64,000 nucleotides of DNA from Candidatus Aminicenantes bacterium (GTDB lineage Bacteria; Acidobacteriota; Aminicenantia; Aminicenantales; UBA4085): NCBI GenBank assembly GCA_026393865.1, contig JAPKZI010000044.1, forward strand, positions 571-64,570, read 5' to 3'. A model generated the notes under the pieces. It saw only the letters and a list, made by a program, of their open reading frames with translations, was not told where the DNA came from and made no database searches. Shown piece by piece: positions 41,212 through 52,364 of the stretch; the stretch's first letter is position 1, and each line of letters begins with the position of its first letter. The translations under genes were made by a program, and so were the position numbers.

Positions 41212-44200
41212 ATGAAAATCGCCGATATTTCGATCAAACAGCCCGTTTTCATCACCATGGTCATCCTCTCCCTGGTGGTCGTGGGCGTCCTGTCCTACTC
41301 CCGCCTCGGCGTCGATCTGATGCCCGATATCACCCTGCCGATCGTCGCCATCACCATCGCCAATCCCGGCGTCGGCCCCGAGGAGATGGAATCCCAGGTC
41401 AGCAAGCCGATCGAGGACGTCCTCAGCACGATCAACGGGGTCGACAAAATCTCGTCCACCTCGGCCGAGGGGGTCTCGGTCGTCGTGGCCTCTTTCGTCC
41501 TGGAGAAGGACGCCCAGCTGGCCTCGACCGAGGTCCGGGAGAAGGTCGCCGGGATCCGGAATACGCTTCCCAGGGAGATCATCGAACCCGTCATCAACAA
41601 GTTCGATCCGTCGGCTTCGCCGATCATCTCCTTCGGCATCCTGAGCAAGAGCGGCCGGATGAACCTTCCCCAAGTCCGTCAGTTCGTCGACGATACGATC
41701 AAAGTCCAGATCCAGCAGGTGGACGGAGTCGGCGCGGTCGACCTCATCGGCGGGCTGGAGCGGGAGATCCAGGTCGAGGTCAACCTGGACAAGATGAACG
41801 CCCTGGGCATATCCATCGCCCAGATCACCCAGGCTATCCGCGGCGAGAACCTGAACCTGCCGGCCGGGCGGGTCACGGAGAAGTCCCAGGATTTTCTCGT
41901 CCGAACCAAGGCCGAGTTCACCAGCCTCCAGGAAATGCTGGACATCGTCATCGCCAACGTCGGCGGCAATCCCGTTTACCTGAAGGACATCGCCGCCGTC
42001 AAGGACGATTTCAAGACCAAGAGGGCGATTTCGCGGATCAATGGCCGGGAATGCGTTTCGCTCATCGTCCAAAAGCAGTCGGGGACGAATACGGTCAAGG
42101 TGGCGGACCAGGTCAACAAGATGATCGCGGCCGCTAAAACAGCCAACCCTGACCTCGATATCAGGACGACGACGGACTCGTCGCTCATGATCGAGGAGTC
42201 CCGGGACGACGTCATCAAAACGTTGATCCTGGGCATCCTGTTCGCCGGGCTGGTCGTGCTCTTTTCCTTCGGCGACCTCCGCAACACGCTCATCACGGTG
42301 GCCGGACTGCCCGTCTGCCTCATCGCCGCCTTTGGCGTCATGGGGGCGCTCGGCTACACGGTCAACATGATCACCTTGCTCGCTCTAAGCCTGTCGGTCG
42401 GTCTCCTCATCGACGACGCCATCGTCGTCCGCGAGAACATCTTCCGTCACATGGAGAAGCTCCACCAGGATCCAAAGCAGGCCGCCAGCGATGGGACGTC
42501 CGAGGTGGGATTGGCCGTCACGGCCACGACAATGACCATCGTCGCCGTCTTCCTCCCGGTCGCCTTCACGACCGGAATCGCCGGCAAGTTCTTCCGCCAA
42601 TTCGGAGTGACGGTCGCCGCGGCCGTCCTCATCTCTCTCTTCGAGGCGTTCACCTTCGCCCCGATGCTGTCCGCCCATTTCTTCAAGAGTGTCGAGCGGA
42701 ACGGTAAAAAAACGCTGTCCTCCCGTTTTCAGGACCTCGTCACCCGGCTCTATGACAAGCTGGGGAACAATTACCGGCCGCTCTTGCGCTGGGCCTTGAA
42801 ACACCGCAAGACCATGATCCTGATCACGACCTTGGTCTTCTTCCTCAGCGCCTATCTCTTCACCGTGGTCGGGACCGGCCAAACCCCTCACGGCTCGCGG
42901 CCGGAATTCAATCTCGTCATCCAGACCCCGTCCGGCAGCTCGCTCGGCCAGACCGATTTGATCGTCCGGTCGATCGAAAAGATCCTGAAAGCGCAGCCTG
43001 AAATCGGGGACGTGGCCGCGGTCGTGGGGTCCACGGACGGTTCGTCCGACGTGGCCACGATCAACGTCAAGCTGACCATCCCGACCAAACTGGCCCAGGA
43101 GTACCAGGACAAGCTCCGGCCGATGCTGACCGACATTCCCGGCGCGTCGATCACCTTCCAAGAGGCCAGCTCGATGGGCGGCGCGGCCTTCGCCTCGATG
43201 CAGCAGCTCCCCGTCCAGATTTATCTGAAGGGGACGGACCTCTCCGCCTTGAGCAACGCCGCCGATCAGGTCAAGCTCGCCCTCCAGAATATCTCCGGCT
43301 TGGTCGACGTCAACAGCGACAACCGGCCGCCCAAACCGGAACTTCAAATCAGGCTCGACCGGGAGCGGGCTTCGCGGCTCGGGACCGGCACGGCTCAAAT
43401 CGCCGCGGCGATGCGTTCGATCGTCGACGGCGACATCGCTTCGAAATATCGCGAGTTCGAGAAGCTTTATGACATCCGCGTCCGCGCCTCCGAGGATGTC
43501 CGTTTCAACCTCGAGAAGCTCGGCCGGGTCTATCTGCCGACTATGCGCGGCGGCACCATCACCCTGGACCAGGTCGGCCGGCTTCAAGCGGTCAGCGGCC
43601 CAACCCAGATCAAGCGCTCCAACCGGACCCGGCAGATCATGATCGGAGCCAACATCCTCAAGGGCCGGGCCCTCAACGAGATCACGCAGAAGGTCAACGC
43701 CTCCCTGGCCGCCCTGCCGTTCCCCAAGGGCGTGACCTACCAATTCGGCGGGCAGGTCGAAATGAACCAGAAGATGTTCGCCTCGCTCGGCCTGGCCATG
43801 GCCCTGGCCATCGTCTTCGTCTATATGGTCCTGGCCTCCCAGTTCGGGTCGTTCGTCCAGCCGTTCGTCATCATGCTCGCCCTGCCGCTCTCCATGATCG
43901 GGGCGGTCCTCGGGCTCCTCCTGGCCAACAAGCTCTTCGACATGGTCGCCTTCATCGGACTGATCATGCTCATGGGCCTGGTGACCAAGAACTCGATCCT
44001 CCTCGTCGACTACACGAATGTCCTGCGGAAAAGGGGATTGAAGCGGTTCGAAGCGATCGTGGAAGCCGGCTCGACGCGGCTGCGGCCCATCCTGATGACG
44101 ACGCTGGCCATGATTCTGGGGATGATCCCGGTCGCGGCCGGCTTCGGGACGAGTTCCGGGTTCCGCGCGGCGATCGGCTACACGATCATCGGCGGCCTGA

Positions 44201-44298
44201 TCAGTTCGACGATCCTGACCCTGGTGGTCGTCCCGGTCGTCTATTCGATCCTGGACGACCTCGTCTTGAAGGCAAGGCGGAAAAAGATGGAGACCTGA
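41212..44298 (+). CDS. RND efflux permease (AcrB/HAE1-like)
   Basis: 1028 aa, 12-TM architecture. 'MKIADISIKQPVFITMVILSLVVVG', 'LSLSVGLLIDDAIVVRENI', 'GLIMLMGLVTKNSILLVDY'. Confidence 0.92.
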   Translation: MKIADISIKQPVFITMVILSLVVVGVLSYSRLGVDLMPDITLPIVAITIANPGVGPEEMESQVSKPIEDVLSTINGVDKISSTSAEGVSVVVASFVLEKDAQLASTEVREKVAGIRNTLPREIIEPVINKFDPSASPIISFGILSKSGRMNLPQVRQFVDDTIKVQIQQVDGVGAVDLIGGLEREIQVEVNLDKMNALGISIAQITQAIRGENLNLPAGRVTEKSQDFLVRTKAEFTSLQEMLDIVIANVGGNPVYLKDIAAVKDDFKTKRAISRINGRECVSLIVQKQSGTNTVKVADQVNKMIAAAKTANPDLDIRTTTDSSLMIEESRDDVIKTLILGILFAGLVVLFSFGDLRNTLITVAGLPVCLIAAFGVMGALGYTVNMITLLALSLSVGLLIDDAIVVRENIFRHMEKLHQDPKQAASDGTSEVGLAVTATTMTIVAVFLPVAFTTGIAGKFFRQFGVTVAAAVLISLFEAFTFAPMLSAHFFKSVERNGKKTLSSRFQDLVTRLYDKLGNNYRPLLRWALKHRKTMILITTLVFFLSAYLFTVVGTGQTPHGSRPEFNLVIQTPSGSSLGQTDLIVRSIEKILKAQPEIGDVAAVVGSTDGSSDVATINVKLTIPTKLAQEYQDKLRPMLTDIPGASITFQEASSMGGAAFASMQQLPVQIYLKGTDLSALSNAADQVKLALQNISGLVDVNSDNRPPKPELQIRLDRERASRLGTGTAQIAAAMRSIVDGDIASKYREFEKLYDIRVRASEDVRFNLEKLGRVYLPTMRGGTITLDQVGRLQAVSGPTQIKRSNRTRQIMIGANILKGRALNEITQKVNASLAALPFPKGVTYQFGGQVEMNQKMFASLGLAMALAIVFVYMVLASQFGSFVQPFVIMLALPLSMIGAVLGLLLANKLFDMVAFIGLIMLMGLVTKNSILLVDYTNVLRKRGLKRFEAIVEAGSTRLRPILMTTLAMILGMIPVAAGFGTSSGFRAAIGYTIIGGLISSTILTLVVVPVVYSILDDLVLKARRKKMET

Positions 44299-44471
44299 CG
44301 AAACCGTGGAAGTCCGGGGTCGACGGCCACGGCCTGCTCTTCCATTGATTCGAGGAATTCTTGAGGCTGACGTCCAGTCGAGCGATTCCGGCGAGCCGGC
44401 CCCGGTCGGGCGGAGTAGGGGGTCGGGACCTCCAGAGACCATGATCCGGAAAGGGAGAATCCTCGGGCTTA

Positions 44472-45458
44472 TTATTTTTCTTTGAGGACCTTGGTGATCT
44501 CGTCGACCAGAGGTTTCGATCCGATATAAAGGGCCGTCCGCTGGTGGGGTTTCTCCGGGACGATGTCCAGGATCGGTTTGCCGTTCTCATCGACCGCTCC
44601 GCCGCCGGCCTCGCGGCACATGAAAGCGACGACCGCCGCCTCGTACATCAACCGCAATTTCCCCTGGGGCCGGTTCTTCCGGGGATCGGGATGGTTGACG
44701 ATGGCGGGATACATGAACAGGCCGCCGTTGAGCAGGATGCGGTGGAAGTCCCCGGCCAGAGCGCCCATGTAGCGGAAGCGGTATTTTTTTTCGTTCTCGG
44801 CGATCCATTTCTGGACGGGCAGGGCGTACGTTTCCCGGTGGGACGAATTGAACGAGAGCTCCCAGGTCTTTTTGGAGACGGGCAGCATCATGCTCGTCGG
44901 TTTGACGAAATTGAACGTCTCATCGAGATGGAATCTCCAGCAGCCCGCGTTGTGCAGGGCGATGGTGAAAGTGCCGGTCGGGATGACGAACATGCCGGCG
45001 GCGATGTATTCGCGGCCGGCCCTCAGATGCATATCCTCCGCCCCCTCGAGGGCGCGCTTGGCTACGCCGAAGAGCAATCCGATCGGCAGGTTGTGGGGGA
45101 CGTTGGACGAGCCGTCCATGGGGTCGTAGTAGACGAAGTACCGGCCGCCCTCCTCGTTCATCACGATGATCTCTTCCTCTTCTTCGCCGATGGCGTGGAC
45201 GACCCGGCCCGAACGGGCGAGAGAATGCTTGACCAGCTCGTTGGCGATCATGTCCATATGGAGGACGTCCTCGCCCTGGATGTTGGTCGATCCCGTCATC
45301 CCCAGGTTTCCCCGCAGGGCGCCGGTCGAATAGTAGAATTGGATGCGTTTGGCGGCGTTGAGGATGGAGTTCATGAGGATCAGGAAGTGGTAGCTGCGTT
45401 TGTGGCGCTCCTGGTGCTCCAATAAGAAATCCATGAACGTTTGTTCGATTTGGATCAT
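44472..45458 (-). CDS. fbp: Class 1 fructose-1,6-bisphosphatase
   Basis: 'NIQGEDVLHMDMIANE', 'YFVYYDPMDGSSN', 'FRYMGALAGDFHRILLNGGLFMYP', 'GKLRLMYEAAVVAFMCREAGG'. Confidence 0.9.
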   Translation of the reverse strand: MIQIEQTFMDFLLEHQERHKRSYHFLILMNSILNAAKRIQFYYSTGALRGNLGMTGSTNIQGEDVLHMDMIANELVKHSLARSGRVVHAIGEEEEEIIVMNEEGGRYFVYYDPMDGSSNVPHNLPIGLLFGVAKRALEGAEDMHLRAGREYIAAGMFVIPTGTFTIALHNAGCWRFHLDETFNFVKPTSMMLPVSKKTWELSFNSSHRETYALPVQKWIAENEKKYRFRYMGALAGDFHRILLNGGLFMYPAIVNHPDPRKNRPQGKLRLMYEAAVVAFMCREAGGGAVDENGKPILDIVPEKPHQRTALYIGSKPLVDEITKVLKEK

Positions 45459-45622
45459 GGCTGTTCCTCCCCTCAGGATTCGGCCCGCGCGGCCGCTCGG
45501 GCCGACGGAATCACCATGTTCTTATCTTAGCCGAGGAACGCCTCGGGAAACAAGGGTTTTTGTCAATCCCGGGAGGACACCCTTCGGATCCGCCTTTTCT
45601 TCGTCTGCTTCATTCCCCGAAG

Positions 45623-47806
45623 CTAAGGGAGCGGAGGACGATCTTTTCGCCGCAGAACGAGAAAAAGCAATCCGAACGCGTTCGCCAGAAACAAATATTC
45701 AAAAAGGACGGGCAGTCCGGCCAGCGGGACGAGGATCGCCGACAGTCCCACGGCGGCCGCGCACGATCCCAGGAGATCCCACCCGTATCCCAGCCCGGCC
45801 TGTCCCTTGTCCTTGAAAAAGAGCCTGTTGGAGACGATGAAAAAATCCCCTCCCAGATAGCCTAAAACGAAGAGCAGGGCGAAGGGAACGATCGGCGGCG
45901 GTCGATAGTCCAGGGCGAGTCGCATGGTCAGGACGACGAGCAGCAGCCCGGACTGCAGGAGCACGATGTGCCGATCGCGGAGCCGTCCGCGTTTGGCCCC
46001 GACCAGCGCTCCCAGCGCCAACCCCGTCATGAACGCGGCCAGGATCAGGGCGACCTGACGGTAGAGGAATCCATACAGGGCTTGGAACCAGATGAGGATC
46101 ATGATCTCGCCGGCCATCGTGGTCAGGCCCATGAGGGCGATGGGAACGGCCGAAATCGCGGATCTTCGCCCCCTCCCTCCGATGAAGGCGAGGAGCCCGA
46201 CGAAGACAAGGAACGGAACGCCCAGCAGCCAGGGGACGGGGATCCGGGCCAGGCCGAGAAGAACCTTCGATTCGAGGCTTTTGAACTGCGTGCTCCAGAG
46301 AACGGAATTGAAGAAATAGCTGATGGGACGGAGGTCCGAGTTCAATCCCGCCGGCCCCGCATCGATCTTCATACGAAGGGCCTCGACCCGCAGGGGATGG
46401 AGACGCGCCGGAAGCCGTTCCGGCGTCACGTAGCGGTTCTTCAGGCCGAACCGCCGCATCGTCCCGATCAGGTCCTCGGCCTCCACCGTCAGCGGCCCGG
46501 CGGATGCCAGGAAAACGTTGGAATCTCCGGGGACGACCTTGACCACGGGGAACGCCTGCCGCAAGGTGTTGGCCATGACCGAGAGAAATTTTTGAAGCTC
46601 CGGACCGATATAGTTTTCGGCCGACGGCACGCGGAACGAGAAGACCCCGCCCTCGGCCAGCTTGTCTCGAACACGAGCGAAGAATTCCCGCGTGTAGAAC
46701 CGGTTGATCTGGGCGGTGGCCGGTTCAGGCAGGTTAAGGATAACGGCGTCATAGACGGCCGGGGTCTCTTCCAAGAACGCCCGGCCGTCGTCATAAACGA
46801 GATGAGCCCGCGGGTTTCGAAGGGATCCTTTCTCGGCGTCGGGCTGGAAGATCTCGGACAGCCGGATGATCTCGGGATCGAGCTCGACGTAATCCACGTC
46901 GGTCCGGGGATATTTGAGAATCTCGGCCAGGCTTCCGCCGGCGCCGCCGCCGATCAACAGGACCCGCCCGGCCTCAGGCCTCTGGAGCAGGGCGAAATGC
47001 ACGGATTCCTCGGCCGCGTCGAGGTCGGGGAAGGAGTAGACACGGAGCGAGTTGTCGTAAAGGGTGAACTGCTCGGACGTTCGAATGACCTGCAGCTTGC
47101 CGTAAAGGCTGTCCTTCGTCCGGACGAGGGCGAAAGGCCGCCAAGCGAGCTTTTGGGCCGGAAGGTCGGAAAAGAAAAGAGCGGCGTGGACAACCAAGAC
47201 GAGAGTGAAGGCGATGGCCGCCTTCCTGCCGTTCAACAAGAAAAACACAGCCGCCGCCGAGGCCGCCCCGATGACGGCCAGCGCCTGCCAATTGGACAGC
47301 AGGGGGATGAGGGTGAGATAGGTCAGGAGGCCGCCCGCGGCGGCGCCGATCGATTCCCAGAGATAGACCCGGGGCAGGTGACCTTCGTCCTTGACCGTGA
47401 AAACGAAGATCGCCCCCAGAGGAAAATTCAGGAAGAAAGAGAGAACGACGGCGAAGAGAAGGATCGGCCCGAGACCGATCAACTCGCCCGGCAAAATGCC
47501 TAGGAAGAAGCGGGAAAACCGCAGAGCGGCGAAACAGCCGGGGGCGACGAGCAGGACGCCGAAAAAAAGGACCGCCAATCCCTTTCTCCCGGGCTCCCGC
47601 CCCGAAGCCCACAGGCTCCCGCATCCGCCCCACAAGAGCCAAGAGGCCAGGACGAGCCCGAAGACCAGTTCGTTGCCGTAGAACTGGGCCGCGAATTCCC
47701 TGAGGAGAAAGATCTGGAGCGAGGCGGCCAGCAGGCCGAGGAGCAAGGCCGGCGGAGAGAACCTCAGGTCCAGATTCCCGGGACCCGATGCTGACAATTT
47801 GGACAC
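45623..47806 (-). CDS. Polytopic membrane protein with central spermidine-synthase-like (SpeE-fold) domain, catalytic motifs degenerate
   Basis: Multiple TM helices on both sides of 'RVLLIGGGAGGSLAEILKYPRTDVDYVELDPEII...YDAVILNLPEP...FYTREFF'. Start uncertain: GTG 47806 (43-nt overlap with the upstream gene) is preferred over ATG 47881/47872 (about 110-nt overlap). Confidence 0.65.
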   Translation of the reverse strand: MSKLSASGPGNLDLRFSPPALLLGLLAASLQIFLLREFAAQFYGNELVFGLVLASWLLWGGCGSLWASGREPGRKGLAVLFFGVLLVAPGCFAALRFSRFFLGILPGELIGLGPILLFAVVLSFFLNFPLGAIFVFTVKDEGHLPRVYLWESIGAAAGGLLTYLTLIPLLSNWQALAVIGAASAAAVFFLLNGRKAAIAFTLVLVVHAALFFSDLPAQKLAWRPFALVRTKDSLYGKLQVIRTSEQFTLYDNSLRVYSFPDLDAAEESVHFALLQRPEAGRVLLIGGGAGGSLAEILKYPRTDVDYVELDPEIIRLSEIFQPDAEKGSLRNPRAHLVYDDGRAFLEETPAVYDAVILNLPEPATAQINRFYTREFFARVRDKLAEGGVFSFRVPSAENYIGPELQKFLSVMANTLRQAFPVVKVVPGDSNVFLASAGPLTVEAEDLIGTMRRFGLKNRYVTPERLPARLHPLRVEALRMKIDAGPAGLNSDLRPISYFFNSVLWSTQFKSLESKVLLGLARIPVPWLLGVPFLVFVGLLAFIGGRGRRSAISAVPIALMGLTTMAGEIMILIWFQALYGFLYRQVALILAAFMTGLALGALVGAKRGRLRDRHIVLLQSGLLLVVLTMRLALDYRPPPIVPFALLFVLGYLGGDFFIVSNRLFFKDKGQAGLGYGWDLLGSCAAAVGLSAILVPLAGLPVLFEYLFLANAFGLLFLVLRRKDRPPLP

Positions 47807-48885
47807 GTTCCTTGCCTCAGATCGTTCCTGACGATCTTGTAGCCGCTTCTTTCGATGACCATCTTCCGGCATTTCGGACAAAAGGTGTTCTCCCCTTCGT
47901 GGCCCGGGATGTTCCCGGTGTAGACGTAGCGGAGACCCTCTTGGAGGGCGGTCTGGCGGAGCTTTTCAAGGGTCGAGATAGGCGTCGGGGGGAGGTTCTT
48001 GATGAGATACATGGGATGGAACCGGGTGAAGTGGAGCGGGACTTCCGGCCCGATCTCCCGATGGAGCCACTGGGTCATCTTCCGGACGTCCTCGACGGCG
48101 TCGTTCAACGTCGGAATGACGAGGTAGACGATTTCCAACCAGATCCCGGCTTGGGCGATGATCTTGATGGCCTCGAGGACCGGTTTCAATTCGCCCCGGA
48201 CGTACGTCCTATAGAAGTCCTCGTCGAAGGACTTAAGATCGATCTTGATGGCCTCCACGACCTTCGTCAGGGCTTCGAGGGGCTCGGGGTTGATATGCCC
48301 GCCCGAGACCACGACGCTCCGGACGCCTTGGCGCTTGGCTTCGACGGCGGTGTCGACCATATATTCATAAAAAACCGTCGGCTCGGAATATGTGTAAGCG
48401 ACGGTGGGACAGCGATATTTGACCGCCGCGTCGGCGACGGCGCGGGGAGGGAAGTCCAAGGCTTGGACCTGCTCCGGCCGGACCTGCGAGATCTCCCAAT
48501 TCTGGCAGAACTTGCAATGAACGTTGCAGCCGGCCGTGGCGATGGACAGGGCGTCCGACCCCGGCAGGACGTGGAAAAAGGGTTTTTTTTCGATGGGATC
48601 GACGTTGACCGAGCAGGCTTTGCCGTAGACGAGCGTGTAATATGTCCCGCCCTCGTTCTGGCGGACGCCGCAGTAGCCTCGCTCCTTATCGCCCAGCTTG
48701 CAGCGTCGGGGACAGAGGCCGCATTCGATCTCCCGGTCGGCCAGGCGCTTGTAATAGCGCGCCTCGACATGGGACAGGTTGACCGTCTGGCCGAAGGCGT
48801 AGAGATGATGAAGCGCCGGCCCGGGATCCGCGCTCAGAACGGCTCCCGCGCCCGCCGCGGTCCGGAAGAAAATACGTCTTTTCAT
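47764..48885 (-). CDS. AmmeMemoRadiSam-system-type radical SAM enzyme (AmrS/PflA-like) with twin-arginine signal
   Basis: 'CGLCPRRCKLGDKERGYCGVRQN', 'NVDPIEKKPFFHVLPGS', radical SAM box 'GCNVHCKFCQNWEISQ'. N-terminus 'MKRRIFFRTAAGAGAVLSA' is Tat-like. Confidence 0.8.
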   Translation of the reverse strand: MKRRIFFRTAAGAGAVLSADPGPALHHLYAFGQTVNLSHVEARYYKRLADREIECGLCPRRCKLGDKERGYCGVRQNEGGTYYTLVYGKACSVNVDPIEKKPFFHVLPGSDALSIATAGCNVHCKFCQNWEISQVRPEQVQALDFPPRAVADAAVKYRCPTVAYTYSEPTVFYEYMVDTAVEAKRQGVRSVVVSGGHINPEPLEALTKVVEAIKIDLKSFDEDFYRTYVRGELKPVLEAIKIIAQAGIWLEIVYLVIPTLNDAVEDVRKMTQWLHREIGPEVPLHFTRFHPMYLIKNLPPTPISTLEKLRQTALQEGLRYVYTGNIPGHEGENTFCPKCRKMVIERSGYKIVRNDLRQGTCPNCQHRVPGIWT

Positions 48886-48901
48886 GGGCTTGCTCGATCC
48901 C

Positions 48902-49798
48902 TCAGGCCGTTTCCTCGACGATCTGGATCCCCGAAAGCGTCGCCGTTCCCAGCCCCATCCGTTCCGCCGTCCGGAGATAGAGCGGCGCCCGCTTGTCTTC
49001 TTCCAAAGAGGGAAGCCCTTTCGCTTTCCGGAGATCCTCGACGATCCGCCAACCGACGAAATCCGCCGCCACGGGGTCCAGGCTGAAGATCAACGCTTCA
49101 TAGGTTTCCGCCCAGCGGGCGTGGTAGGAAGGGCCTCGATGGTATTGAACGACCAGGGCGTCCAGGATCGTCAACCGGTGTTTCGATTTGATCGACGGAG
49201 CGTCGAAGAGCTCGGCGATGAAGGGATTGCAGTTGTCGTCATGGTATTTGTTGGGATTATGGACGGCGCCATAATAGTTTTTCAAGCCGGCCGTGATCCC
49301 GGCCATCCCATGGTCTTTCAATACGGCCAGGCTGACCGAAGCGGTGACGAAGCTCGACTGGATGGCCGAGAACAGGCTCCCGATGTTGAGATGAGTGATC
49401 GGCTCGCCGGGGTAGCCCATACCGGCCGTGTCCGTCCCCATGATCTGAAAGACATCACCGCCGGAATTCAGGCGGTATCGAGCTTCCTTGAGCTCGCGGT
49501 TCGTCCGATCCCAGACGACGATCTGTCTCTCTCGGATCCCCGCCGCGACCATGAGGCGGGCGAGGGGCAAGCTGACTTCGGGGGGCGTTGTGAGCTCGGG
49601 AGCGGCTATGGCGTTGACCTTGATCCCGATGCGATCGGCAGGCGCGAAGATCGTCCGCAACCCCGCAACGCTATTGTTCTGGCCGGTGAGAAGACGGAAG
49701 CCGCGCTCGTACATGTTTGCGAGGACCTTCGGCTCGACCTCGCCTTTTCGCGGTATAACCCCTTTTCCCCGGACGATCACGACCTTTGAAGCGGCCAT
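48902..49798 (-). CDS. DUF362 domain protein
   Basis: 'KVVIVRGKG...RIGIKVNAIAAPELTTPPEVSLPLARLMVAAGI...IVVWDR' matches the DUF362 N-terminal pattern. ATG 49798 lies 7 nt after a TAATTT box. An alternative TTG is at 49807. Confidence 0.65.
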   Translation of the reverse strand: MAASKVVIVRGKGVIPRKGEVEPKVLANMYERGFRLLTGQNNSVAGLRTIFAPADRIGIKVNAIAAPELTTPPEVSLPLARLMVAAGIRERQIVVWDRTNRELKEARYRLNSGGDVFQIMGTDTAGMGYPGEPITHLNIGSLFSAIQSSFVTASVSLAVLKDHGMAGITAGLKNYYGAVHNPNKYHDDNCNPFIAELFDAPSIKSKHRLTILDALVVQYHRGPSYHARWAETYEALIFSLDPVAADFVGWRIVEDLRKAKGLPSLEEDKRAPLYLRTAERMGLGTATLSGIQIVEETA

Positions 49799-49805
49799 CG
49801 ATGTC

Positions 49806-49835
49806 AAATTACCCCAGCCGGTCGAGACTTGTCAA
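49806..49835 (-). promoter_or_regulatory. sigma70-like promoter of the DUF362/radical SAM/SpeE-like operon (leaderless configuration)
   Basis: Minus strand: TTGACA (49835-49830), 18-nt spacer, TAATTT (49811-49806), 7 nt, then ATG 49798. Confidence 0.4.
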
Positions 49836-49857
49836 TGCGGTCCGTTGCGGTTATATT
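49829..49857 (+). promoter_or_regulatory. sigma70-like promoter for the 49891 gene, sharing its -35 with the divergent promoter
   Basis: TTGTCA (49829-49834), 17-nt spacer, TATATT (49852-49857). The near-palindromic TTGTCAA core also reads TTGACA on the other strand. Confidence 0.4.
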
Positions 49858-49890
49858 AAGAGCCGGGACCTGAATCGATAGGAGTCAAGC

Positions 49891-50802
49891 ATGGAGAGGA
49901 AGATGTCGAGAAAAGAAATCGTCTTGATCCTGGCCCTGGCGGCGGCGCTCAATTCGCCGGCGCCGGGGGCTCAAAAAATCGGGGCGTCGTCCCTGACGTC
50001 GCTTCTTCCCCAGGTGGCCAATTGGAAGGCCGCGGAGGGCGTCCAGCGCTATGGTCCGGAAACCCTTTACGAGTTCATCGACGGGGCGGCCGAGGCGTAT
50101 ATCAGCTACGATTTCAAGGAGTTGATCGTCGCCGAGTTCCAGGGCGGCCGGACGAAAACGTCCTTGACGACCGAGATCTACGACATGGGATCGGAGCTGA
50201 ACGCGTTCGGCATCTACAGCGCCGAGCGCTTTTCCGAAAGCCGTTTCATCCCGATCGGCGTTCAAGGCTACCTCGAAGAGGGGACCTTGAATTTCCTGGC
50301 CGGCCGCTATTACGTCAAACTGATGTGCTATGAGGGCGGCGGCCAAACCGAGGGATTCCTGAAGCTTTTTGCCGAAGCCATCGTCGACAAGATCAATAAC
50401 CCGGGAGGTTTTCCGGTTCTCCTGCGGGCCTTCCCGAAGGACGGGCTCGTCGCCAACAGCGAAAAGTTCATCCTGCGCAATGTCATGGGGTTCAAGTTCC
50501 TGAAGAACGGGTTCATCGCCGGCTATCGGCAGGCCGGTCAGGAATTCGACGCCTTCCTCATCGACGGAAGGACCGCCGACGAAGCGGACGCCATGCTGAA
50601 GCAATATCTGGATAATTTCATCAAGAGCGGGCAGGCCGCCGACAAGCGGTCGTACGGAGTGCATGTCAAGGATGCTTATCTAAAGCACGTCTTCGTGGCC
50701 AAAGCGGGTTCCTATATCTGCGGCGTGACCAAGATCAAGGACGGCCAGGACGCTCTGGGAGAGAAAGTCCTGGCGGCGCTGGTCAACGGCTTGAAAAAAT
50801 AG
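49891..50802 (+). CDS. Hypothetical secreted protein
   Basis: RBS AGGAG. Signal peptide 'RKEIVLILALAAALNSPAPGAQ'. 'GPETLYEFIDGAAEAYISYDF' and 'AFGIYSAERF' blocks recall an exported DUF family, but I cannot name it with confidence. Confidence 0.5.
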   Translation: MERKMSRKEIVLILALAAALNSPAPGAQKIGASSLTSLLPQVANWKAAEGVQRYGPETLYEFIDGAAEAYISYDFKELIVAEFQGGRTKTSLTTEIYDMGSELNAFGIYSAERFSESRFIPIGVQGYLEEGTLNFLAGRYYVKLMCYEGGGQTEGFLKLFAEAIVDKINNPGGFPVLLRAFPKDGLVANSEKFILRNVMGFKFLKNGFIAGYRQAGQEFDAFLIDGRTADEADAMLKQYLDNFIKSGQAADKRSYGVHVKDAYLKHVFVAKAGSYICGVTKIKDGQDALGEKVLAALVNGLKK

Positions 50803-50931
50803 CCGCGGGTGGGCAAGGAGGATTCCTCTCGTGAGAAGGGCCGGGTCGCACTTTCTTCCAAGGAACTTTTGACCGAGAATGATGACGTGAGGCGTGAAAC
50901 TCGCTGACGGTCCGTGAAATAATCCGGCCGG

Positions 50932-51597
50932 TTATCCGGGCTGGATGATTTTGGAGCGGCGGGACGATTCGGCGATCCGGGCGAATTGTTCGGTCAAGTG
51001 CTCGAGATAAGCCCGACCCTGGAAATTCTTCCTCGTCCAAAAGCGCGCCGCCAGGATCAGGCGGTCCAGGCACTGGAACTTCTCCTCGCTCTTGTAGCCG
51101 TCCCCCGCGGCCGTCAGGATCAGACCGCCCTCGTACGTGCAGTTCTGCAGGCTCCGGAAGACCATCTCGCCGGCGTCGTTTCGCGAGGTCCGCTCTTCTC
51201 CCGGCAGCAGGATGAGATTCCGGCCCCTGGACAGCTTGTCCTTGGCGTATTCGAGGGCGAGGATGGCCTCGCCGTCGGTGAACGCCGGATCACGTTCGCC
51301 GATCTCTTTGAGCGGAGCCTCGATGTTCAGCGCCAGCCAGGCGGTCCGCTCGTCCTTCCAGGGATCGTCCGGGGGACGTCCCGGGCGCGCCGGCGGAGCC
51401 GGCTTCTTTTCCAGGATCTTTTTTTCCCGGTAGGGTTTGTGTTCGGCCAGGAAACGGCAGGCGGGCGGGCAGGCGACCTCCCTACCGCGCATGATCCCGC
51501 AGCACAGAGGGCAGAGGTCGCTCCTCAGACCGGGACAGCGGCGCTTGGCTTTTCTTTGACGGCAACGGGAGCACTTGACCATGGGCCGACAGATCAC
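50932..51597 (-). CDS. Hypothetical protein with N-terminal 8-Cys zinc-ribbon-like cluster
   Basis: GTG 51597 overlaps the rnc stop (GTGA); alternative ATG 51582. Pattern C-x2-C-x8-C-x7-C-x2-CC-x9-C-x3-C within the first ~50 residues. The rest is a soluble alpha-helical-looking domain. Confidence 0.5.
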   Translation of the reverse strand: MICRPMVKCSRCRQRKAKRRCPGLRSDLCPLCCGIMRGREVACPPACRFLAEHKPYREKKILEKKPAPPARPGRPPDDPWKDERTAWLALNIEAPLKEIGERDPAFTDGEAILALEYAKDKLSRGRNLILLPGEERTSRNDAGEMVFRSLQNCTYEGGLILTAAGDGYKSEEKFQCLDRLILAARFWTRKNFQGRAYLEHLTEQFARIAESSRRSKIIQPG

Positions 51598-52364
51598 TTC
51601 TTGAAGATGAACGTCTCCTTGGTCAAGGCTTTGATCTTTTTTCCGAAGAAGCTCTTGAGAGCCTTTTCGGCCCCCTTGAGCTCGGCCGCTTTCCGCGAGG
51701 GGCCGCTGGCCTTGGCCAGGGATGTCTTGTTGACGAAGACCTCGACTACGAATTCCTTATTGTGATCGGGTCCGGTCGACTTCATCAGCTTATAATGGGG
51801 AGCCGGAAGGTCCTCTTTGTGAAGGAATTCCTGGAGGGCCGATTTATAGTTGTTGATGTCGAGCTGGTCCTCGTCCTTGATCTTCTTGAACGATCCGCGG
51901 AGCAGGTTCAGGTAGACATCCTGGGCCGCTTTGTAGCCGCCGTCGAGGAAGACGGCCCCCAGCACGGCTTCGAAGGTCCCGGCCAGGATGCTGTCCTTTT
52001 TCCGGCCGCCGCTCTTTTCCTCGCCCCGGCCGACGCGCATGAAATGGTCGAGCCGGATCTGCCGGGCATACTCCGCCAAGCCGATCGTGCTCGTTGCCGA
52101 GGATTTCAACTTCGACAGGTCGCCCTCGGTGACCTCGGGGTAGGATCCGTAGAAGAACGCGGCGGCGATCAGGCCGACGACGGAATCGCCCAGGAACTCC
52201 ATCAATTCGTTGTCCCTGGACTTTTCGGCGCTCTCGTAGGCGAAGGAGCTGTGCGTCAGCGCCTGGAGGAGGAGGTCCTTGTTCCGAAACTGATAGCGAA
52301 GCTCACGTTCGAGCTCCGAGACGACGCTTGGCTTTTTTCTTTTTCTCAAGATGTTCCTCATCAT
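51594..52364 (-). CDS. rnc: Ribonuclease III
   Basis: ATG 52364 overlaps the pyrC stop (ATGA). 'LLLQALTHSSFA', signature 'NELMEFLGDSVV', dsRBD 'YKSALQEFLHKEDLPAPHYKL...GPDHNKEFVVEV'. The 551-aa track ORF N-terminus is an out-of-frame shadow of pyrC. Confidence 0.9.
   Translation of the reverse strand: MMRNILRKRKKPSVVSELERELRYQFRNKDLLLQALTHSSFAYESAEKSRDNELMEFLGDSVVGLIAAAFFYGSYPEVTEGDLSKLKSSATSTIGLAEYARQIRLDHFMRVGRGEEKSGGRKKDSILAGTFEAVLGAVFLDGGYKAAQDVYLNLLRGSFKKIKDEDQLDINNYKSALQEFLHKEDLPAPHYKLMKSTGPDHNKEFVVEVFVNKTSLAKASGPSRKAAELKGAEKALKSFFGKKIKALTKETFIFKK

Follow-up and report, generated by a model that had tools for sequence, protein, structure and literature searches.

A probable envelope-located form of the AmmeMemoRadiSam system in Candidatus Aminicenantes

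A cluster of three genes from a Candidatus Aminicenantes bacterium, encoding a DUF362 protein, an AmmeMemoRadiSam-type radical SAM enzyme and a polytopic membrane protein with a SpeE-like domain, is probably the Aminicenantes form of an AmmeMemoRadiSam variant located in the cell envelope. This variant is widespread, though previously undescribed. The canonical system, defined by comparative genomics, comprises a TIGR04337 enzyme together with AMMECR1 (PF01871) and Memo (PF01875). The envelope association already proposed for the three genes in the original prediction is supported by the signals and membrane segments described below, with all localisations being sequence predictions.

In the window (the whole 64-kb stretch of DNA that was analysed), the three open reading frames (ORFs) are co-directional on the minus strand. 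The DUF362 and radical SAM genes are separated by a gap of 16 nt, the radical SAM and membrane protein genes overlap by 43 nt, and 164 nt lie between the latter and fbp, exactly as originally read. The features referred to in the text are the following:

44472-45458: fbp, neighbour beyond the membrane protein gene
45623-47806, minus strand: membrane protein, 727 aa, GTG start, the ORF being open to a TTG at 47881
45650-46237, minus strand: residues 524-719 of the membrane protein, forming transmembrane helices 8-14 in the AlphaFold model
46352-47131, minus strand: SpeE-fold soluble domain of the membrane protein (residues 226-485), predicted outward-facing
47144-47755, minus strand: residues 18-221 of the membrane protein, forming transmembrane helices 1-7 in the AlphaFold model
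47764-48885, minus strand: AmmeMemoRadiSam-type radical SAM enzyme (TIGR04337), 373 aa
48763-48885, minus strand: predicted Tat signal at residues 1-41 of the radical SAM enzyme, MKRRIFFRTAAGAGAVLSADPGPALHHLYAFGQ...
48902-49798, minus strand: DUF362 protein, 298 aa, ATG start, a TTG at 49807 being also open
49805-49834, minus strand: putative promoter-like element read from the sequence, with -35 TTGACA (49829-49834), an 18-nt spacer and -10-like TAATTT (49805-49810)
49891-50802, plus strand: DUF6599 protein (PF20244), 303 aa, signal peptide at the N-terminus

The genes nearby are syntenic housekeeping genes (fbp, RNase III and pyrimidine genes). The TTGACA-N18-TAATTT promoter proposed earlier is present as a sequence but was not picked up by a consensus promoter scan, because its -10 matches at just three of six positions. 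Across five diverged Aminicenantes-type loci the TTGACA is nevertheless position-invariant, the remaining intergenic conservation being only 45%, and TTT is conserved within the -10-like element. As the element stops 7 nt short of the DUF362 ATG, the leader would be very short or absent.

The assignment of the middle gene to the AmmeMemoRadiSam family, made originally from motifs, is borne out by profile searches. The enzyme scores 382.3 bits against TIGR04337 (E 1.8e-114, cutoff 220), with residues 42-372 aligned to model positions 1-333 of 349, and 71.7 bits against PF04055 (Radical_SAM). Both the DPIEKKPFFH block and the cluster motif CNVHCKFC (CxxxCxxC type) were found as described, the core (residues 42-372) being accompanied by N- and C-terminal Cys motifs. 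The nearest characterised families by HMM, and the sole PDB relatives, are the glycyl-radical-enzyme activases (PFL-AE, NrdG, YjjW), which share the CxxxCxxC core; the closest structure is that of the PFL-activating enzyme (E about 1e-4). However, the enzyme reaches 55-58 bits with these families, whose cutoffs are 231-250, and it differs from them by the extra Cys motifs and by the Tat signal. No glycyl-radical enzyme gene was found nearby.

This Tat signal is the most unusual feature of the enzyme and had escaped the original prediction. The criterion used was a motif resembling [ST]-R-R-x-F-L-K at the N-terminus with a mildly hydrophobic h-region after it; the enzyme of the window, where the motif reads MKRRIFFRTAAGAGAVLSA, fits it and thus carries a predicted export signal. 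The feature is not a peculiarity of one sequence, as 119 of 120 radical SAM homologues have RRxF[FL][KR] and then an h-region rich in Ala/Gly, with the N-terminal consensus M-[KNDE]-R-R-x-F-[FL]-[KR]-T-A-A-G-A-G-L. After the h-region there is no clear AxA-type signal-peptidase site, the conserved block at that place being LYAFGQ, meaning that the signal may stay as an anchor. Enzymes of the export or membrane type make up 80% of the nearest 30 cluster representatives versus 12% of those at ranks 101-150. In some relatives the N-terminus is of the Sec and not of the Tat type, a finding that fits poorly with the export of an Fe-S protein, and in some Planctomycetota the enzyme is devoid of a signal and still paired with the membrane protein. 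Radical SAM enzymes are not known as Tat substrates.

The order of the three genes recurs in about 20 Aminicenantes-type loci with differing flanking genes, a recurrence that places the arrangement far from chance and shows the triad to be a conserved unit. Among 15 metagenome loci taken at 60% identity or more, the membrane protein was found in all 15, DUF362 in 14 and Memo/AMMECR1 in none. The reported lack of AMMECR1 and Memo genes in the 64 kb was equally recovered: tblastn with two seeds per family gave a best E of 0.15 in the window, where the radical SAM positive control gave 8.5e-113. Neither gene was detected within about 8-10 kb at the about 20 Aminicenantes-type loci.

A different picture emerges in relatives with 44-57% identity, in which the DUF362, radical SAM and SpeE-like genes adjoin a gene for a fused Memo-AMMECR1 protein (Zixibacteria, Acidobacteriota, Thermoanaerobaculales, KSB1, Phycisphaerae and others). 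The Memo-AMMECR1 fusions adjoining these genes begin with hydrophobic (Sec) signal peptides. In 42 well-flanked radical SAM loci, the SpeE-like membrane protein was present in 31, spanning many phyla and including two archaeal MAGs, Memo-AMMECR1 in 28 and DUF362 in 11. DUF362 was found only alongside Tat-type enzymes (16/45 versus 0/35), and at six DUF362-containing loci of other lineages Memo/AMMECR1 was likewise absent nearby. The original prediction that the enzyme had been recruited away from AMMECR1 and Memo thus finds no support, since relatives keep the same genes beside the fusion; DUF362 and the membrane protein would be accessories of a variant AmmeMemoRadiSam system and not an alternative to it. 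AMMECR1/Memo genes do adjoin orthologues elsewhere, and the adjacency of the triad is not unique to this genome. In line with the candidate undescribed system proposed originally, the enzyme and its accessory genes carry no curated system annotation.

The cluster thus resembles the canonical system in its enzyme, which lies above the TIGR04337 cutoff and is 44-46% identical to Memo/AMMECR1-fused enzymes (P0134 and P0154), and in the retention of Memo-AMMECR1 in the same cluster by sister lineages. It departs from it in the Tat signal, in the additional conserved DUF362, SpeE-like membrane protein and DUF6599, and in the unlinking of Memo/AMMECR1 in the Aminicenantes-type lineage. Canonical members, the Bacteroidales loci L080 and L087 among them, have neither signals nor a membrane partner.

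The DUF362 protein matches PF04015 as expected (65 bits, cutoff 24; residues 60-253 spanning positions 1-199 of the 200-position profile), with no NCBIfam match and no relatives found in the PDB. In an alignment of the triad-type subfamily the invariant residues are K60, H163, K173, N181-P182-N183-K184, H186 and D213. PF04015 shares the Pfam clan CL0471 with the N-terminal domain of LarA (PMC11770544). The protein is devoid of a signal peptide in the Aminicenantes-type lineage and bears its own Tat signal at no fewer than 13 loci of other phyla. Being Tat-signalled elsewhere and signal-less here, where its gene abuts that of the radical SAM enzyme, it probably forms a complex with the enzyme and is carried along in it. 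Tat-exported Fe-S enzymes that carry a signal-less partner are represented by the small and large subunits of [NiFe] hydrogenases and by DmsAB. The cluster is similar in that an RR-signalled Fe-S protein is encoded beside a signal-less partner with Tat-signalled orthologues elsewhere; DUF362 may be co-exported.

In the Acidobacteriota/Aminicenantes lineage the cluster probably has a fourth member, the DUF6599 protein (154.4 bits against PF20244, cutoff 27). Its gene is divergent and upstream in every Aminicenantes-type locus with enough flank, and in four Acidobacteriota loci (L014, L015, L021 and L026) it is co-directional and heads the cluster, with Pfam confirming the domain at L014 (73 bits) and L021 (66 bits).

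The membrane protein, whose gene overlap with the radical SAM gene is identical at L001 and L004, is modelled by AlphaFold (pLDDT 87.7, pTM 0.87) as seven helices (18-41, 46-68, 74-96, 112-141, 144-169, 172-190 and 193-221), the soluble domain and another seven helices (524-545, 548-578, 581-604, 611-632, 639-663, 667-696 and 698-719). In this model the 14-helix core would correspond to a 6+6 MFS-like repeat plus two extra helices bearing the SpeE-fold domain. The mean hydropathy profile of 43 homologues agrees with the modelled helices, and the two six-helix repeats are homologous (hhalign probability 98%, E 3e-13); the putative MFS assignment derives from this internal repeat and from below-threshold matches. 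For the same 43 homologues, in the region of helices 8-14, K+R-rich loops (2.6, 3.0 and 1.6 residues per sequence) alternate with one of almost no charge (0.1). Having 7+7 instead of 6+6 helices puts the SpeE-like domain opposite the K/R-rich loops, so that the positive-inside rule and the AlphaFold model predict an outward orientation for it.

The relationship of this domain to spermidine synthases is clear in fold, as proposed initially (PF01564, 84.9 bits, cutoff 22.9; 1UIR in a PDB profile search, E 2.3e-42; Foldseek TM-score 0.75), and the SAM-binding scaffold is retained (GGG 286-288, E308, D340, D353 and R369). In SpeE, the acidic residue of GGG[DE]G selects decarboxylated SAM (dcSAM), and the catalytic Asp lies in D-[ST]-[ST]-D-P. 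Unlike in SpeE, both are lost here, being replaced by A289 and N358, while 1UIR shows GGGEG and IDLTDP in the alignment. Of 39 homologues, 32 have A/V/I/L/F at position 289 and two have Glu; at position 358, 21 have Asn and four have Asp. A SpeE derivative that uses SAM is known in putrescine N-methyltransferase. The GxGxG motif is degenerate in a Zixibacteria homologue, and cofactor binding may accordingly not be universal. The protein stays below the cutoffs of the SpeE equivalog models (TIGR00417, 81.6 bits, cutoff 249.55; PRK00811, 101.5 bits, cutoff 260). NF037959 (fused MFS/spermidine synthase), a name given by NCBI to some relatives, falls just short as well (39.4 bits against 40) and matches only through profile positions 277-411, the SpeE part; the architecture differs from that family because the SpeE-like domain is inserted, by means of the two extra helices, between the two six-helix repeats.

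Transmembrane electron-relay modules appear in relatives of the cluster. In two radical SAM proteins (P0152 and P0153) a single N-terminal helix is followed by FMN_bind and then by the radical SAM domain, with no helix between, and other relatives are fused to FMN_bind and NapH-like Fer4_5 modules or, in some cases, to DsbD_2; a DsbD_2 gene is also adjacent at 13 loci. In Planctomycetota it is the membrane protein itself that is fused to FMN_bind and Fer4_5. Some radical SAM relatives combine a signal peptide with beta-propeller or CBM_11 fusions. The cluster family is in this respect comparable to the flavinylated NapH-like/NosR-like and DsbD systems, in which such modules are described as routes for electrons to redox enzymes outside the cytosol (Meheust et al. 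2021, PMC8238504); radical SAM, Memo and AMMECR1 go unmentioned in that study. It differs from these systems here in that no electron-relay gene or module is visible within the 64-kb window.

With all parts bearing export or membrane signals, oxygen-sensitive radical chemistry would be placed outside the cytoplasm, where it is unexpected. Radical SAM enzymes require SAM and a low-potential reductant, neither of which is known to exist outside the cytoplasm. In the proposed mechanism, Fe-S clusters would be inserted in the cytoplasm and the radical SAM enzyme then exported folded via Tat, DUF362 probably being carried out in complex with it. The SpeE-like domain would be positioned at the outer face of the membrane, and the components would act together in the radical-SAM-dependent modification of a substrate that is associated with the envelope and probably membrane-bound. 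What the MFS-like protein moves through the membrane would be either this substrate or the adenosyl cosubstrate or by-product, and electrons would arrive via a transmembrane relay of the kind that other lineages show in fusions or next to the genes. The full chain of Tat export, radical SAM chemistry at the outer face, movement of SAM out or of 5'-deoxyadenosine and methionine in by the membrane protein, through its MFS-like core and outward-facing SAM-binding domain, and reduction by a transmembrane relay is put forward tentatively, as a possible account that may well be wrong in this detailed form.

The envelope-located variant has to be weighed against other readings of the same genes. It is conceivable, although unlikely, that the enzyme here works independently of AMMECR1 and Memo, forming with DUF362, the membrane protein and perhaps DUF6599 a self-contained unit with a different target. 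The missing Memo/AMMECR1 genes in the window, around the about 20 Aminicenantes-type loci and near the six DUF362 loci of other lineages would fit such independence, and no Aminicenantes name occurs among the best 120 relatives of the Zixibacteria Memo-AMMECR1, a weak test that is uninformative. Yet the same genes adjoin Memo-AMMECR1 in lineages from Zixibacteria to Phycisphaerae, making a loss of linkage, and not a new function, the simplest history. More doubtful still is a system acting wholly on the cytoplasmic side, with the RR motif tethering or vestigial and the SpeE-like domain in the cytoplasm together with SAM. This would match the known requirements of radical SAM chemistry, the cytoplasmic position of the central loop in classical MFS transporters and the pairing of some signal-less enzymes with the membrane protein. 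It is opposed by the 7+7 helices seen in both the model and the family hydropathy, which leave the domain opposite the K/R-rich loops, by the near-universal Tat consensus among the homologues, by the Sec or Tat signals of partner proteins and by the direct fusion of the enzyme to FMN_bind.

A loose neighbourhood, in which the membrane protein would be a true aminopropyltransferase or a transporter for surface polyamines unrelated to the enzyme, seems very improbable. The homology of its domain to solved aminopropyltransferases is evident and relatives are named 'spermidine synthase' in the sources, but every SpeE equivalog cutoff is missed, most homologues carry Ala or a hydrophobic residue in place of the acidic one that selects dcSAM, and few keep the catalytic Asp. 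Moreover, the protein co-occurs with the radical SAM enzyme across phyla, archaea included, the two genes overlap and both proteins share fused electron-relay modules. We give hardly any credence to a role in anti-phage defence, whether of the viperin type or akin to MADS (methylation-associated defence system). It is suggested by weak PADLOC matches of the enzyme to pVip (24.6 bits) and of the methyltransferase-fold region of the membrane protein to mad2 (53.7 bits), but these span generic radical SAM and methyltransferase-fold regions alone, and the surroundings of the locus are syntenic housekeeping genes with no other defence gene nearby. The locus has also been inherited vertically throughout a class.

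If the full chain set out above, with true Tat export and chemistry at the outer face, is correct, the cluster would represent the first extracytoplasmic radical SAM system. It would also point to a component of the cell envelope as the kind of substrate long sought for the AMMECR1 and Memo proteins of bacteria.

All three minus-strand genes of the original prediction were recovered as open reading frames (ORFs), and HMM searches returned for each the family that had been proposed:

48902-49798, minus strand: DUF362 gene (PF04015, 65 bits)
47764-48885, minus strand: radical SAM gene (TIGR04337, 382.3 bits against a cutoff of 220)
45623-47806, minus strand: membrane protein gene (PF01564, 84.9 bits)

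The spacing was also as described, with 16 nt separating the DUF362 and radical SAM genes, 164 nt lying between the triad and fbp, and a 43-nt overlap between the radical SAM and membrane protein genes, given a GTG start at 47806; the same overlap was picked by gene callers in two of the contigs with homologues (L001 and L004; L-numbers designate such loci). Membership of fbp in the unit was considered and rejected, because only in L001, the closest relative, does it come next after the triad; L003 and L004 have other genes downstream. The TTGACA-N18-TAATTT sequence proposed as promoter is present upstream of the DUF362 gene, but a scan for promoter consensus sequences did not report it. However, five diverged loci with otherwise 45% conserved intergenic regions share an invariant TTGACA, and about 7 nt separate the end of the -10-like element from the DUF362 ATG. 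Both points argue for a genuine promoter with a very short leader or none, and favour the ATG at 49798, rather than the TTG at 49807, as the start codon. When window positions 49790-49895 are aligned with L001, L003, L004 and L019, the -35 is conserved and the -10-like element lies close to the start codon; leaderless or near-leaderless translation of the DUF362 gene is suggested for the Aminicenantes lineage. Terminator-like sites were no more numerous than in shuffled sequence, and an Rfam scan of 44000-52000 returned no RNA element. A Cys-rich 221-aa protein (MICRPMVKCSRCRQRKAKRRCPGLRSDLCPLCCG...), encoded at 50932-51597 on the minus strand, is kept beside the RNase III gene in L001, L003 and L019; it had no Pfam or NCBIfam match.

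The closest homologues carry the names Candidatus Aminicenantes or Aminicenantales. In the contigs encoding enzymes 79%, 67% and 65% identical, the order is constant (divergent DUF6599, DUF362, radical SAM, SpeE-like membrane protein), with the downstream genes varying from fbp to a GAF-HD protein or an epimerase on the other strand. A further 15 loci came from a metagenome scan; their gene content was as follows.

Genes at 15 metagenome loci with enzymes at least 60% identical
Membrane protein: 15/15
DUF362: 14/15, the lone exception having 3 nt of upstream flank
DUF6599: 12/15
Memo/AMMECR1: 0/15, several loci having about 8-10 kb on both sides

Given this constant order and these counts, the triad is a conserved unit in the Aminicenantes lineage, consistently unlinked to Memo/AMMECR1. 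The same holds for the window, where, as had been claimed, neither partner is encoded in the 64 kb: Memo and AMMECR1 domains cut from two fused relatives of the enzyme (P0134 and P0154, Pfam-verified) gave a best tblastn E value of 0.15, against 8.5e-113 for the radical SAM control. A homologue search with a Zixibacteria Memo-AMMECR1 fusion listed no Aminicenantes name among its best 120 matches, a depth too small to be telling.

More distant relatives present another picture. Next to P0122 (53% identical), whose neighbours resemble Zixibacteria proteins, the order is DUF362, radical SAM and a 706-716-aa protein that is a full-length homologue of the window membrane protein (27% identity, E 1.7e-45), with a fused Memo-AMMECR1 gene divergently upstream. 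For P0123 (49%), Memo-AMMECR1 is followed by the radical SAM gene, beside a 788-aa homologue of the membrane protein (E 3.7e-62), and for P0133 (44%) the radical SAM gene precedes Memo-AMMECR1. A genome scan annotated with purpose-built HMMs extended the comparison to 80 loci from many phyla.

Genes at the 42 loci with at least 4 kb on both sides
Membrane protein: 31/42
Memo-AMMECR1: 28/42
DUF362: 11/42

The membrane protein occurs also in two archaeal MAGs (L074, L084). Across the whole set of 80 loci, DUF362 is found only with Tat-type enzymes (16/45 vs 0/35). Four Acidobacteriota loci (L014, L015, L021, L026) hold the full set of DUF6599, DUF362, radical SAM and Memo-AMMECR1, with the membrane protein gene convergent and the DUF6599 genes of L014 and L021 confirmed by Pfam. 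Since these loci hold the full set, the window cluster is the Acidobacteriota-type cluster minus Memo-AMMECR1. DUF6599 as a stand-in for Memo-AMMECR1 was rejected, because both occur in the Acidobacteriota clusters. The same four clusters carry, just past the membrane protein gene, a second, longer DUF362 paralogue (L014, 6677-8203), which in L014 measures about 509 aa as a stop-to-stop segment (PF04015, 165 bits). The view of an orphan enzyme recruited into an envelope-associated module therefore stands as regards the conserved triad, but not as regards the orphan status, since P0122, P0123 and P0133 adjoin Memo-AMMECR1. A separate case is the Tat-bearing P0121 (54% identical; L008:1-17164), without DUF362 or membrane protein nearby, whose neighbours are a BNR/Ycf48-like beta-propeller (overlapping gene), a radical SAM/SPASM protein, a GT2 glycosyltransferase and two PMT_2 glycosyltransferases, which is another envelope-flavoured context.

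The envelope association itself gained from a feature that the original prediction had missed. The TIGR04337 model begins at residue 42 of the enzyme, and residues 1-41 (MKRRIFFRTAAGAGAVLSADPGPALHHLYAFGQ) contain a predicted Tat signal whose RRxF[FL][KR] motif and Ala/Gly-rich h-region are present in 119 of 120 homologues, the one exception being truncated. N-termini of the export or membrane type make up 80% of the nearest 30 of 150 cluster representatives vs 12% at ranks 101-150; some relatives have Sec-type N-termini, and some from Planctomycetota have no signal at all. In P0152 and P0153, a single N-terminal helix and FMN_bind precede the radical SAM domain without an intervening helix, and in other relatives this domain comes after FMN_bind plus a NapH-like Fer4_5, after DsbD_2, or after a signal peptide plus beta-propeller or CBM_11. 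To the last group belong P0126 (Reg_prop/PorZ-like beta-propeller) and P0137 (CBM_11-like domain), with C-terminal radical SAM domains and architectures of secreted type. The partners carry similar signals. The Memo-AMMECR1 fusions adjoining these genes have an N-terminal hydrophobic signal peptide in nearly all loci; the few without it (L054, L080, L087) have no membrane protein either, and the enzyme, too, is signal-less in L080 and L087. DUF6599 carries a signal peptide. A canonical Tat signal of its own is present on DUF362 from Acidobacteriota, Eisenbacteria, Poribacteria, KSB1, Phycisphaerae and others; the Aminicenantes and Zixibacteria versions alone are without one, and there the DUF362 gene abuts or overlaps the Tat-bearing gene. 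Two further observations concern N-termini. At Desulfobacterota and Bacteroidota loci (L052:11077-12330, minus strand; L053, L056, L088), another radical SAM protein of a different kind (about 418 aa), with its own Tat-like N-terminus (MISRREFIVASLWMGGWLL...) and Radical_SAM as its only Pfam match (42 bits), adjoins the AmrS-type gene. In L041, L058, L063, L073, L091, L092 and P0127, an extra Cys/His-rich block (...ARYW[IV]S....C..CH...H...) lies between the signal region and the core, suggesting an additional metal or haem-like site.

The AlphaFold model of the membrane protein, built on 64 sequences and of high confidence (pLDDT 87.7, pTM 0.87), places seven helices (18-221) before an alpha/beta domain (226 to about 485) and seven after it (524-719), a helix count also given by the hydropathy profile over 43 homologues. 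Loops rich in K+R (2.6, 3.0 and 1.6 per sequence) alternate with a nearly uncharged loop (0.1), and every K+R-rich loop lies on the face opposite the soluble domain, so that by the positive-inside rule the SpeE-like domain is predicted to face outward. Helices 1-6 and 9-14 form two homologous repeats of like orientation (hhalign 98%, E 3e-13), so that the protein is a 6+6 core in which helix 7, the domain and helix 8 take the place of the central loop. Matches to MFS families, both below threshold (LplT, 26 bits; MFS_1, 28 bits in a homologue), are in line with an MFS-like core. The domain is homologous to aminopropyltransferases (PDB profile search, 1UIR, E 2.3e-42; Foldseek TM-score 0.75), and its key residues were counted as follows.

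Residues of the SpeE-like domain in 39 homologues, numbered by the window membrane protein
286-288 (GGG), cofactor binding in SpeE: Gly in 31, 31 and 25 of 39
308, ribose binding in SpeE: Glu in 33/39
340, 353, 369, cofactor scaffold and family-specific Arg: Asp, Asp and Arg, each 39/39
289, acidic in SpeE, where it selects dcSAM: A/V/I/L/F in 32/39, Glu in 2/39
358, catalytic Asp in SpeE: Asn in 21/39, Asp in 4/39

The adenosyl-cofactor scaffold is thus kept, and the two residues defining aminopropyltransferases, at 289 and 358, are lost. The most fitting label is a SAM-type ligand-binding or transferase domain, not a spermidine synthase; despite its SpeE fold, the protein falls below the SpeE equivalog cutoffs. 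In the Zixibacteria homologue the GxGxG motif is degenerate. PADLOC matched mad2 of the MADS defence system to residues 272-432 (53.7 bits), and the mad2 family may share the SpeE-like domain; a defence reading was rejected, the PADLOC matches being generic and domain-level only, and no other defence features were found at the locus. For DUF362, neither single-sequence nor 41-sequence profile searches matched the PDB, and a single-sequence AlphaFold model (pLDDT 33) was discarded; a structural link is offered by the Pfam clan shared with LarA (PMC11770544).

Electron-transfer modules accompany several relatives. At Planctomycetota loci (L093:12745-16632, L085:12641-16852, L075:7182-11126), where the radical SAM ORF has no N-terminal extension, membrane protein homologues of about 1300 aa end in FMN_bind plus NapH-like Fer4_5, the same module that elsewhere occurs in fusion with the enzyme. 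At 13 loci (L090:13191-13850, plus strand; L037, L038, L045, L049, L054, L055, L061, L070, L076, L086 and others), a DsbD_2 (PF13386) membrane protein of about 220 aa recurs as a neighbour, mainly where the enzyme N-terminus is hydrophobic, not Tat; in P0129, P0136 and P0148 the enzyme itself carries a fused copy of this domain. NapH-like/FMN-binding and DsbD modules are conduits to extracytosolic redox enzymes according to Méheust et al. 2021 (PMC8238504), who make no mention of radical SAM, Memo or AMMECR1.

Family memberships, conserved signals, gene order, fusions and predicted topology form the basis of the mechanism proposed here. The enzyme would be loaded with clusters and then exported by Tat, DUF362 being co-exported in the Aminicenantes lineage, to act on an envelope-associated substrate. 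The cofactor-binding domain of the membrane protein would face outward, and its membrane core would move an adenosyl cosubstrate or by-product, or else the substrate. Electrons would arrive via a transmembrane relay; no such relay gene was recognised in the window. We know of no source of SAM or low-potential electrons outside the cytoplasm, and this, with the Sec-type N-termini, the signal-less Planctomycetota relatives and the degenerate Zixibacteria GxGxG, is the main difficulty for the model.

The enzyme is by score a TIGR04337 member, but the AMMECR1/Memo neighbourhood that defines the canonical AmmeMemoRadiSam system is absent from the window locus, and NCBIfam has no curated model for DUF362 or the membrane protein as accessory parts. 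In the literature, AmmeMemoRadiSam was found only in incidental mentions, and nothing relevant was found on AMMECR1 with radical or spermidine synthase, or on radical SAM with Tat/extracytoplasmic; part of the association may be in Burroughs et al. 2019 (J Biol Chem 294:10211, PMC6664185), which reportedly extends Memo/AMMECR1 gene contexts. The locus is one member of a large, apparently exported and uncharacterised AmmeMemoRadiSam branch. For annotation, the labels "spermidine synthase" and "pyruvate formate lyase activating enzyme" are misleading for these genes.

Radical SAM enzymes are regarded as strictly cytoplasmic, since their chemistry depends on SAM and a low-potential electron donor and their Fe-S clusters must be protected. 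The branch is large, spans phyla and has Tat-signal members, partners with export signals and relatives to which transmembrane electron relays are fused. Should the predictions prove right, the cytoplasm-only view would no longer stand, and there would have to be a route by which SAM or its by-products cross the membrane. AMMECR1 and Memo are conserved from bacteria to humans and tied to human disease, though no molecular function has yet been assigned to them. A bacterial version that is exported and has its own membrane partner would narrow the search to envelope-associated substrates and provide concrete, testable constructs.
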